Positions 34,305 through 34,998 of a stretch of DNA of 64,000 nt are shown here, one piece after another. Position 1 is the first letter of the stretch. Every line of letters starts with the position of its first letter. The DNA comes from a phage. The position numbers were made by a program, and so were the translations under genes. The notes beneath the pieces are model-generated. The model made no database searches, was not told the DNA's origin, and was given only the letters and a program-made list of their open reading frames with translations. The DNA lies in the NCBI GenBank assembly GCA_024672275.1, contig GCA_024672275.1_4536.1; one strand, 5' to 3'.

Positions 34305-34334
34305 TTGACAACTAACATTATTTTATGTTAGATT
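34305..34334 (+). promoter_or_regulatory. sigma70-like promoter (TTGACA-18-TAGATT), ACTATTGACAA family
   Basis: About 8 nt upstream of tRNA-Ser 5' end. Confidence 0.5.
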
Positions 34335-34342
34335 ATAAGTAT

Positions 34343-34433
34343 GGAAGGGCAAATCGACGTGGCGACGAAAACGGTCTTGAAAACCGCCGAGCTTGAAAGA
34401 GCCTTGGGAGTTCGACTCTCCCTCCTTCCGCCA
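34343..34433 (+). tRNA. tRNA-Ser (anticodon UGA), class II
   Basis: Long variable arm, loop ctTGAaa, T-arm gggag-ttcgact-ctccc, discriminator G, CCA encoded. Confidence 0.7.
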
Positions 34434-34437
34434 GATT

Positions 34438-34523
34438 GGTAGATTGGTGAAATGGTAGCCACGACAGTTTGCTAAACTGTAGTCGGAAACGGCGTGTAGG
34501 TTCGAGTCCTACATCTACCGCCA
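34438..34523 (+). tRNA. tRNA-Ser (anticodon GCU), class II
   Basis: Acceptor ggtagat/atctacc, stem acagt/actgt, loop ttGCTaa, long variable arm, discriminator G. Confidence 0.7.
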
Positions 34524-34653: not shown

Positions 34654-34741
34654 GGTGAGTTAATTCCGTAGGGGTAGCGGGGCAGACTGTAAATCTGTTA
34701 TCATTGCGATTCGGGTGGTTCGACTCCATCACTCACCACCA
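34654..34741 (+). tRNA. tRNA-Tyr (anticodon GUA), class II
   Basis: Acceptor ggtgagt/actcacc, loop ctGTAaa, long variable arm, CCA encoded. Confidence 0.65.
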
Positions 34742-34747
34742 AATTAA

Positions 34748-34833
34748 GATGAGTTGGCTGAACGGTTTAAGCGGCGGACTGTTAATCCGTGTTCGAAAGA
34801 ACGATATAGGTTCAAATCCTATACTCATCGCCA
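34748..34833 (+). tRNA. unusual tRNA: Asn-type anticodon arm (GUU) in a long-variable-arm (class II-like) scaffold, discriminator G
   Basis: 86 nt with CCA; stem gcgga/tccgt, loop ctGTTaa; 15-nt variable region gttc-gaaa-gaac. Confidence 0.55.
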
Positions 34834-34840
34834 GAATTAT

Positions 34841-34917
34841 GGACTTGTAGAGTTAAGGTAAACCCCCAGTCGCCAAGAGGCTTCTGGAATTGCAGGTATC
34901 GAATCCTGCCGAGTCCC
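34841..34917 (+). pseudogene. degenerate tRNA-like element
   Basis: Acceptor ggacttg/cgagtcc and T-arm-like gcagg...cctgc (8-nt loop) but no regular anticodon arm; no CCA. Confidence 0.3.
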
Positions 34918-34923
34918 AGCTTT

Positions 34924-34998
34924 GCTCCTATAGTATAATGGCTATTACAACGGTTTTGTAATCCGTGGATCTCTGTTCGATTCAGAGTGGGAGCACCA
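34924..34998 (+). tRNA. tRNA-Thr (anticodon UGU)
   Basis: Acceptor gctccta/tgggagc with one GU, D-arm gtataatggctattac, loop ttTGTaa, T-arm ctctg-ttcgatt-cagag, CCA. Confidence 0.6.

Follow-up and report, generated by a model that had tools for sequence, protein, structure and literature searches.

A 64,000-nucleotide stretch of phage DNA (contig GCA_024672275.1_4536.1 of GenBank assembly GCA_024672275.1; hereafter the window) carries, at positions 34748-34833 of the plus strand, a gene that we confirmed to be a real phage tRNA reading asparagine codons, with a class-II-like extra arm. The textbook class II tRNAs of bacteria are those for Leu, Ser and Tyr, plus that for Sec. The gene described here gives a fourth amino acid a tRNA with the class II outline, in a large family essentially confined to phages. 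Judging from sequence, we consider it probable that this is a functional phage tRNA-Asn, laid out on the tRNA-Asn plan, in which the variable loop has been expanded into a short hairpin capped by a GNRA loop.

Structure and spread of the long-arm tRNA-Asn

ARAGORN calls a tRNA-Asn (gtt) exactly at 34748-34833 (+), 86 nt long including an encoded CCA and with its anticodon at position 34. The Rfam tRNA model RF00005 matches positions 34748-34830 end to end (60.4 bits, E = 6e-12, model positions 1-71; gathering score 29), and the annotation of relatives agrees. The gene reads GAUGAGU-UG-GCUGAACGGUUUAAGC-G-GCGGA-CUGUUAA-UCCGU-[GUUC-GAAA-GAAC-GAU]-AUAGG-UUCAAAU-CCUAU-ACUCAUC-G-CCA, with the variable region in brackets. 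The 5' strand of the acceptor stem, GAUGAGU (34748-34754), pairs over 7 bp with ACUCAUC (34823-34829), starting with G1-C72, A2-U71 and U3-A70. The D arm (34757-34772) has a 3-bp stem (G10-C25, C11-G24 and U12-A23), G13 opposes the base preceding A23 as G/A, and G18 and G19 are present. G26 and the anticodon arm occupy 34773-34790, with the anticodon GUU at 34781-34783. The 15-nt variable region that follows (34791-34805) consists of a 4-bp stem, a GAAA tetraloop and an unpaired GAU, and it leads into the T arm (34806-34822), the discriminator G73 (34830) and the encoded CCA (34831-34833). Besides the sequence itself, these assignments draw on the Rfam alignment (acceptor), alignments (D arm), ARAGORN and a comparison with E. 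coli (anticodon arm), folding and covariation (variable region), and Rfam with an alignment of homologues (T arm).

The universal tRNA positions (U8, A14, G18 and G19, U33, A37 and the GUUCAAAUC T loop) are all intact, and the branch is the canonical 7/5 (7-bp acceptor, 5-bp T stem) and not the 8/4 or 9/3 of the allo-tRNAs. The cloverleaf, the 7-nt anticodon loop with U33 and the score above the gathering value are those of an elongator tRNA. The variable region, at 15 nt with a 4-bp stem, departs from the 4-5 nt loop of a canonical class I tRNA. A first reading, made from the letters alone (the sequence-only reading), had folded the gene by hand into an 86-nt tRNA with a 7-bp acceptor, a gttc-gaaa-gaac hairpin in the variable region, a canonical T arm and G73, and all of these details proved correct. 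The long arm also survived the covariance model: Rfam gives no standard class I fold and treats 12 variable-region nucleotides as inserted, in the manner seen with the neighbouring tRNA-Ser(GCU). In a single-sequence minimum free energy fold of the gene (z = -1.56, unremarkable), the acceptor, extra-arm and T hairpins are predicted and the D and anticodon arms are missed.

The extra stem of the long-arm tRNA-Asn is under selection and is no chance hairpin. Its inner three pairs form in 28, 28 and 27 of 28 diverse homologues aligned for their 15-nt variable region, with 17, 19 and 6 double-sided changes, and the outer pair forms in 15 of the 28. None of 500 shuffles reached the covariation score, and the pairing is lost when the partners are shifted by 1-3 columns. 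The signal is about as strong as that of the T stem in the same alignment.

We compared the gene with the E. coli tRNA-Asn(GUU) (asnT/U/V/W, class I), whose sequence has a 100% match, annotated tRNA-Asn, in 5425 of 5426 complete E. coli genomes. Positions 26-43 of the host tRNA (GGCGGACUGUUAAUCCGU), which comprise G26 and the anticodon arm, are identical in the window gene; the sequence-only reading had stated this identity for the anticodon arm, and the match is exact. The two tRNAs also have in common G73, the 7/5-bp branch, A37 (the t6A site) and G34 (the queuosine site). They differ in the variable region (a 5-nt loop, AUGUC, in the host and the 15-nt hairpin in the phage), in the D stem (4 bp against 3 bp with G13 opposed to A) and in the first acceptor pairs (U1-A72/C2-G71 against G1-C72/A2-U71); beyond positions 26-43 their sequences are unrelated. 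BLAST found no copy of the 86-nt gene in 5,426 E. coli genomes, prophages included.

The window belongs to a Phapecoctavirus-type coliphage (phAPEC8-like, Stephanstirmvirinae). Over the 700 bases around the gene, identity is 99.6% to Escherichia phage ECO340P1 and >97% to dozens of relatives, and the gene itself is 98.8% identical to annotated tRNA-Asn genes of many Phapecoctavirus genomes, being 1 nt from dozens of relatives. At 34763 (D loop, position 16) the window has C where all database relatives have T.

The design, which we define by a GUU anticodon, a host-like anticodon arm, a 12-18-nt variable region with a short stem, and G73, extends well beyond this genus. Long-arm GUU tRNAs annotated as plain 'tRNA-Asn' occur in at least nine phage genera and hundreds of genomes. 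Carriers include, besides Phapecoctavirus, phi92 (Justusliebigvirus), the T4-like Serratia phage CBH8 (Winklervirus) and CC31 (Karamvirus), Proteus phage 2 (Novosibvirus), Salmonella phage bobsandoy (Epseptimavirus), HK6 and SP15 (Tequintavirus), the Klebsiella jumbo phage Muenster (Alcyoneusvirus) and Erwinia phage pEa_SNUABM_56 (Henunavirus). The window gene is matched by 262 phage records. The HK6 locus is matched by 416 T5-like records, 171 of which cover at least 80% of the query, a segment that contains the long-arm gene.

A pattern scan of IMG/VR (the anticodon arm, then a long gap, then GGTTC) returned at least 120 loci, with at least 81 distinct long-arm GUU tRNAs among the matches listed; family counts given below out of 81 refer to these. 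The loop of the extra arm is GAAA in 39 and GNRA in 52 of them. When short as well as long gaps were accepted in a second scan of viral contigs, about 15 of 123 matches (~12%) were long-arm genes. The long-gap pattern had only 26 matches in 100,044 bacterial and archaeal species, searched with one genome each; ARAGORN calls about 13 of these long-arm tRNA-Asn, several lying in arrays of 8-29 tRNAs and others standing single on contigs of metagenome-assembled genomes. Given this spread among viruses and near-absence from bacterial chromosomes, the long-arm tRNA-Asn is a phage or mobile-element architecture and not a housekeeping type. The comparison with related phages that the sequence-only reading had called for reveals a widespread phage family and not an oddity of one genome. 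We found no description of a long-variable-arm phage tRNA-Asn in the literature, including reviews of tRNA identity and of non-canonical tRNAs (subscription-only papers lay outside the search), and the family seems to be undescribed.

Evidence for asparagine identity

Asparagine identity in E. coli consists of the anticodon and G73 (Giege and Eriani 2023, PMC9976931), and the statement in that review that it can be transplanted into another tRNA body cites Li, Pelka and Schulman 1993. The set read by asparaginyl-tRNA synthetase (AsnRS), G34 U35 U36 plus G73, is complete in the window tRNA. Serine identity resides in the long arm and the acceptor stem, with G73 of moderate importance, and seryl-tRNA synthetase (SerRS) ignores the anticodon (PMC9976931), which makes sound the premise of the sequence-only reading that SerRS reads the long arm and G73 and not the anticodon. 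The serine set is present in part, with the long arm and G73 and without G2-C71 and A3-U70. G73, kept in 78 of 81 family members, is common to both identities and hence does not discriminate between them.

U1-A72 is a GatCAB determinant typical of bacterial tRNA-Asn. It is present in 53 of 81 family members and absent from the window gene, which has G1-C72; it is not among the AsnRS identity elements in PMC9976931. U1 occurs in 56 of 85 long-arm tRNA-Asn and in 71 of 94 class I phage tRNA-Asn, and a 'UCC' start in 23 of 85 and 44 of 94, respectively. In the same contigs, a U start was found in none of 98 tRNA-Ser, none of 76 tRNA-Leu and 2 of 69 tRNA-Tyr. The tRNA-Ser of these viral contigs carry G2-C71 (56 of 56) and A3-U70 (52 of 56), and E. 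coli tRNA-Ser(UGA) begins GGAAGUG; the long-arm tRNA-Asn have mixed 2-71 and 3-70 pairs.

In one lineage, an asparagine tRNA with an insertion is directly visible. In pEa_SNUABM_56 and the metagenomic sequence L018 (L numbers are our own handles), positions 10-43 are identical to E. coli tRNA-Asn at 32 of 34 positions, the 4-bp D arm included, and the sole architectural change is a variable loop expanded by 10 nt. Their acceptor strand GACGAGG and arm GAGC-GAAA-GCUC-UAU resemble those of the window gene and of phi92.

Other class I isotypes in viral contigs, namely Thr(UGU), Cys(GCA), Trp(CCA), Met, Pro, His and Lys, also come in long-armed versions whose discriminators match the respective isotype. 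Thr has A73 (with a G1-C2 start), Cys U73, Trp G73 and Lys A73, and the long-arm His has an extra 5' G (G-1) and C73. Since these tRNAs keep the discriminator that goes with their own anticodon, the arm appears to be a structural add-on and not an identity switch.

We looked for a class II parent of the window gene by comparing its 5' and 3' halves with their nearest neighbours among about 1,000 phage tRNAs, and none was clear: the top neighbours were a mixture of long-arm Thr, Cys, Tyr and Ser tRNAs, and an obviously Leu-like D arm was confined to the subgroup of L119. Retention of the determinants of a class II parent, as in the nev- and nov-type tRNAs, was not found either, the acceptor ends of the family being of the Asn type and not those of Ser, Leu or Tyr. 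Derivation from a tRNA-Ser(GCU) by a C35U change was considered and dropped; there is no clear parent, and the phi92 and Henunavirus relatives carry class I-type D arms, so that the Ser-like D arm of the window gene is a resemblance only.

Possible roles of the arm

If the gene is a functional tRNA-Asn, its product would be transcribed with the neighbouring tRNAs of the array and then processed, with the CCA already encoded. Host AsnRS would charge it with asparagine through G34-U35-U36 and G73, and during infection it would decode AAC and AAU. Asn codons are heavily used, at 55 per 1000 in the long open reading frames of the window (G+C 38.8%), and simple codon supply is a plausible role. For the arm, a possible reason is that all but the part read by AsnRS and the ribosome has been made unlike the host tRNA. 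Defence nucleases of the host that target tRNAs also read the body, and a body of this kind may make the tRNA hard for them to cleave. That the arm is kept to evade such nucleases is our leading guess, and a tentative one.

PARIS AriB targets E. coli tRNA-Asn(GUU), cutting between positions 40 and 41; the nuclease needs contacts beyond the anticodon stem-loop and is predicted to contact D-loop positions 16-17 (PMC12409363). P2 OLD also cleaves tRNA-Asn (PMC12445682). The window tRNA shares its anticodon with this host tRNA and adjoins a tRNA-Thr(UGU), the other main nuclease target. The phage escapes described from PARIS, OLD, PrrC and retron-Eco7 all alter the anticodon stem-loop. If the arm is protective, it would represent a different escape principle, in which the host anticodon arm is kept and the architecture is changed, and it would explain why the phage carries a copy of a tRNA that the host has in four copies.

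Some observations weigh against such a role. The AriB site U36-A-A-U-C|C41 and the paired CNG motif (CGG/CCG) of P2 OLD are unchanged in the window tRNA, and none of the anticodon stem-loop substitutions typical of nuclease-resistant phage tRNAs is present, positions 26-43 being identical to the host's. Azam et al. 2024 expressed a 'phage tRNA-Asn' from SP15 that is of the long-arm type, the one published test of such a tRNA that we found; it gave no rescue from PrrC170, which targets tRNA-Lys (PMC11555353). We also rejected the broader idea that long arms mark PARIS and OLD targets in general; in contigs not selected for a long arm, they were found in 0 of 46 tRNA-Thr, 0 of 21 tRNA-Lys and 6 of 22 tRNA-Ile(UAU). 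As a separate observation, a U16-to-C change in E. coli tRNA-Lys impairs AriB cleavage (Belukhina et al.), and any tie to the C at 34763 is speculative.

At the tRNA-Asn locus of Tequintavirus, upstream of rna3, class I and long-arm genes alternate. T5 has a 78-nt class I tRNA-Asn with an irregular, altered anticodon stem (L128 9953-10030; NC_005859 33952-34029), and the genes of BF23 and Bas34 (SelmaRatti, MZ501103; 77 nt) are likewise class I. In HK6 (L127 136-218) and SP15 (L164 7559-7641) there is a long-arm tRNA-Asn of 83 nt with a host-like anticodon arm, and most Salmonella T5-likes carry the long-arm gene too. The difference looks like allelic replacement, and the two forms depart from the host tRNA in two different ways. 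In their work on PARIS resistance, Belukhina et al. 2025 used the T5 tRNA-Asn and discussed that of Bas34; as both are class I, these results say nothing on the long-arm type. The long-arm type itself has been annotated hundreds of times as 'tRNA-Asn' and was used in a published experiment without remark on its shape.

Only a little less likely than nuclease evasion is that the tRNA-Asn is functional and the arm purposeless, a tolerated legacy of a hairpin insertion or, in some lineages, of an anticodon shift in a class II tRNA. The arm would be harmless if AsnRS needs little of the tRNA body, in keeping with the transplantable minimal identity set that PMC9976931 reports from the earlier work, and an existing stem would have to stay paired for the tRNA to fold, which could account for the covariation. 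The D arms of the family are heterogeneous, being host-Asn-like with 4 bp in L063, L018 and phi92, Leu-like in L119 and L130, and Tyr-like in L010, which suggests several origins or free drift. Other class I isotypes are occasionally long-armed in phage contigs, and an 11-nt tandem duplication in a bacterial tRNA-Asn (L152, described below) shows that expansion is easy. A legacy without purpose fits less well with the enrichment in phages, where about 12% of the viral-contig genes with this anticodon arm have the long arm, against 26 matches in 100,044 species genomes. The design is also found on different tRNA bodies in phage families that are not related, a pattern that suggests convergence or repeated retention. 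The GNRA loop in about two thirds of the members listed and the alternation of alleles at one T5-like locus are further points against it.

Less favoured, and in our view improbable, is a dual identity in which SerRS charges a meaningful fraction of the tRNA, so that serine is inserted at Asn codons and this is selected or tolerated. Several facts speak for it or weigh against the asparagine reading. Serine identity is independent of the anticodon, and the window tRNA has part of its set, namely the long arm, G73, G1-C72 and C11-G24; it also has G9. At 15 nt, with a 4-bp stem and a GAAA loop, its arm matches in size the one in the tRNA-Ser(GCU) of this phage, a tRNA that host SerRS presumably charges and that itself lacks the C11-G24 present in the tRNA-Asn. 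The D arm of the window tRNA, UGGCUGAACGGUUUAAGC, resembles that of E. coli tRNA-Ser, UGGCCGAGCGGUUGAAGGC. Work attributed to Himeno et al. in 1990 is said to have converted a tRNA-Tyr to serine identity with G73, G9 and an extra stem longer by two nucleotides, a combination close to the window tRNA. Class IIb synthetases approach the tRNA from the variable-loop side, and tolerance of the arm by AsnRS is not obvious. There are also precedents for charging at odds with the anticodon: in nematodes, Leu is the only amino acid carried by the nev-tRNAs, whose anticodons are those of Gly or Ile (PMC3333845), and the allo-tRNAs deliver Ser or Ala whatever the anticodon (PMC5389517).

Against serylation, the window tRNA has A2-U71 and U3-A70 in place of the near-invariant G2-C71 and A3-U70 of the viral tRNA-Ser, and the acceptor ends of the family are of the Asn type, most often with U1-A72. 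C2-G71, an antideterminant against SerRS in E. coli tRNA-Leu (PMC9976931), is present in 32 of the 81 members listed. Family-wide, the geometry of the arm, with 0-1 unpaired 5' base, a 3-4-bp stem and 3-4 unpaired 3' bases, is that of tRNA-Tyr and not of tRNA-Ser; the tRNA-Ser of the same viral contigs have stems mostly of 4-7 bp and mostly 0-2 unpaired 3' bases. Within this genome the difference is slight, no more than a one-base register shift, with a layout of 0 + 4 bp + GAAA + 3 in the tRNA-Asn and 1 + 4 bp + GAAA + 2 in the tRNA-Ser(GCU); that of E. coli tRNA-Ser(UGA) is 1 + 5 bp + GAAA + 1. The E. coli tRNA-Ser(UGA) and tRNA-Tyr sequences used for comparison were verified. An anticodon arm identical to the host's would be pointless for SerRS and is needed by AsnRS. 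Hundreds of lytic phages from many families have retained the design, and SP15 tRNA-Asn was expressed in E. coli from a strong phage promoter in cells that supported plaque assays (PMC11555353), so that strong expression is compatible with growth.

The sequence-only reading had offered two options. One, an asparagine tRNA bearing an unusual insertion, is well supported by comparison: by G73 and the Asn-type ends of the family, by pEa_SNUABM_56 and by acceptor pairs that are not those of tRNA-Ser. The other, a chimera that could place serine at Asn codons, is unlikely. Were dual identity real, it would amount to a widespread virus-encoded mistranslation device, placing serine at asparagine codons in hundreds of lytic phages, a prospect that we rate as low. 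A complete AsnRS set and a partial SerRS set in one tRNA provide a natural test of synthetase competition. Both the amino acid carried and the purpose of the arm can be tested with existing phages, such as SP15, phi92 and BASEL isolates.

Least likely is a decoy or competitive inhibitor of a nuclease or tRNA-binding factor, or a decaying pseudogene: overexpressed viral tRNAs might inhibit AriB by competition (Belukhina et al., PMC12409363), a host-identical anticodon arm would make good bait, and tRNA-like RNAs lacking an anticodon loop adjoin the gene (34843-34920; rna3 in T5), but the intact universal positions, the 7/5-bp stems, the encoded CCA, the full-length 60-bit Rfam match, a G73 kept family-wide that is relevant to aminoacylation alone, and a sequence 1 nt from dozens of relatives all speak against it, and the intact positions and conservation led us to reject the pseudogene outright.

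Neighbouring genes and known systems

ARAGORN finds ten tRNA genes between 33957 and 35879 of the window. The in-genome comparator used above, tRNA-Ser(GCU), lies at 34438-34523 (+; 86 nt, ARAGORN and Rfam), with G1-C72, G2-C71, G73 and the variable region A-GUCG-GAAA-CGGC-GU. The next canonical tRNA downstream of tRNA-Asn is tRNA-Thr(UGU) at 34924-34998 (+; ARAGORN and Rfam). A promoter-like site at 34305-34334 (+), a consensus match only (TTGACA, 18 nt, TG-TAGATT), precedes the run Ser(UGA)-Ser(GCU)-Tyr-like-Asn-tRNA-like-Thr; promoter-like sites in the tRNA region are not above the shuffled expectation in number.

Several members of the array are unusual. Just downstream of the promoter-like site, a tRNA-Ser(UGA) at 34343-34429 (+), missed by ARAGORN, reads GGAAGGG...CCUUCC-G-CCA, with G1-C72, G2-C71, A3-U70 and an unusual D arm; Rfam rates it only as tRNA-Sec-like (37.4 bits, below the gathering score). 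ARAGORN also misses a tRNA-Tyr(GUA)-like gene at 34654-34741 (+; Rfam tRNA, 39 bits), which has apparent extra bases between the acceptor and D stems and is labelled tRNA-Tyr, tRNA-Pseudo-GTA or tRNA-OTHER in relatives. Directly 3' of tRNA-Asn, a tRNA-like RNA at 34843-34920 (+) has a 7-bp acceptor (GGACUUG/CGAGUCC) and a T arm and lacks a normal anticodon loop. Its T5 counterpart is annotated as misc_RNA rna3, 'putative tRNA-like RNA'. The motif TGTAGAGTTAAG(G)TAAACC also follows tRNA-Asn in T5, HK6 and SP15, so a module of tRNA-Asn and an rna3-like RNA is common to Demerecviridae and Phapecoctavirus. At the end of the array, a weak RyhB-like Rfam match at 35966-36020 (+; 29.4 bits, gathering score 55) takes in a terminator-like hairpin (35995-36013) and is probably just the terminator.

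Other unusual tRNAs were noticed in the comparison genomes. Adjoining the long-arm tRNA-Asn of pEa_SNUABM_56 is an 87-nt tRNA-Lys(UUU) (OP480063.1 86116-86202; L271 228-314), not called by ARAGORN, with a normal 5-nt variable loop and a GAC-GCAA-GUC hairpin in the D loop. It exemplifies another type of GNRA-hairpin insertion, and the corresponding host tRNA is a prime target of nucleases. The long-arm tRNA-Ile(UAU) of viral contigs (90-96 nt; 6 of 22 in unselected contigs, as above) has a conserved AGAUUA/AGAUAA motif in its variable arm (contigs L017-L121 and L209-L269, e.g. L022 6272-6363, L243, L248 and L261). Azoarcus sp. L1K30 (L152, NZ_JAGRRD010000001.1) has a 76-nt class I tRNA-Asn together with an 87-nt variant of the same sequence, whose 11-nt tandem duplication, TCCGTAGGTCA, covers both the variable loop and the last part of the anticodon stem and shows how a variable region can expand. 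Many tRNA-Leu called by ARAGORN in phage contigs are shorter than 80 nt (e.g. 22 of 47); they are candidates for Leu anticodons without a long arm, and some may be miscalls.

We compared the window gene with the known tRNAs that it resembles. Like tRNA-Ser, it has a long variable stem-loop and G73, and it differs in its GUU anticodon, in the 2-71 and 3-70 pairs described above and in an arm (15 nt, 4 bp) shorter than that of E. coli tRNA-Ser(UGA) (16 nt, 5 bp). Its arm geometry, with 3 unpaired 3' bases, is like that of tRNA-Tyr, and its discriminator is G73 where tRNA-Tyr has A73. The nematode nev-tRNAs and other eukaryotic noncanonical V-arm tRNAs (Hamashima et al. 2012; PMC3333845) similarly join a class II body to a class I anticodon and are conserved within lineages. 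However, the nev-tRNAs are eukaryotic, weakly expressed and derived from tRNA-Leu, whose leucine determinants they keep, whereas the phage family keeps asparagine determinants (GUU, G73 and mostly U1-A72), the anticodon itself being a major determinant for AsnRS, unlike the situation with Gly and Ile anticodons in the nev-tRNAs. Allo-tRNAs (Mukai et al. 2017; PMC5389517), mined from metagenomes and partly of phage origin, also combine a long V-arm with G73 or U73 and non-serine anticodons. Their branch is 8/4 or 9/3, their D arms are tRNA-Sec-like and their presumed identity is Ser or Ala, whereas the window gene has the canonical branch and an Asn anticodon arm.

The nuclease-resistant phage tRNAs include the T5 tRNAs for Lys, Thr and Asn that resist PARIS AriB, a tRNA-Thr that resists P2 OLD and the T5 tRNA-Tyr that resists retron-Eco7 (PMC12409363, PMC12445682, PMC11555353, PMC10264068). 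They and the window gene are alike in being phage-encoded members of arrays that carry the anticodon of a cleaved host tRNA and are unlike that host tRNA. The described examples escape by substitutions in the anticodon loop or stem or by a shortened stem; the window gene keeps the host's anticodon arm unchanged and departs from the host tRNA through its added arm and different body. On the basis of these sequence comparisons, the window gene is a tRNA-Asn with a class II architecture typical of phages, distinct from the nev-tRNAs, the allo-tRNAs and the nuclease-resistant phage tRNAs.

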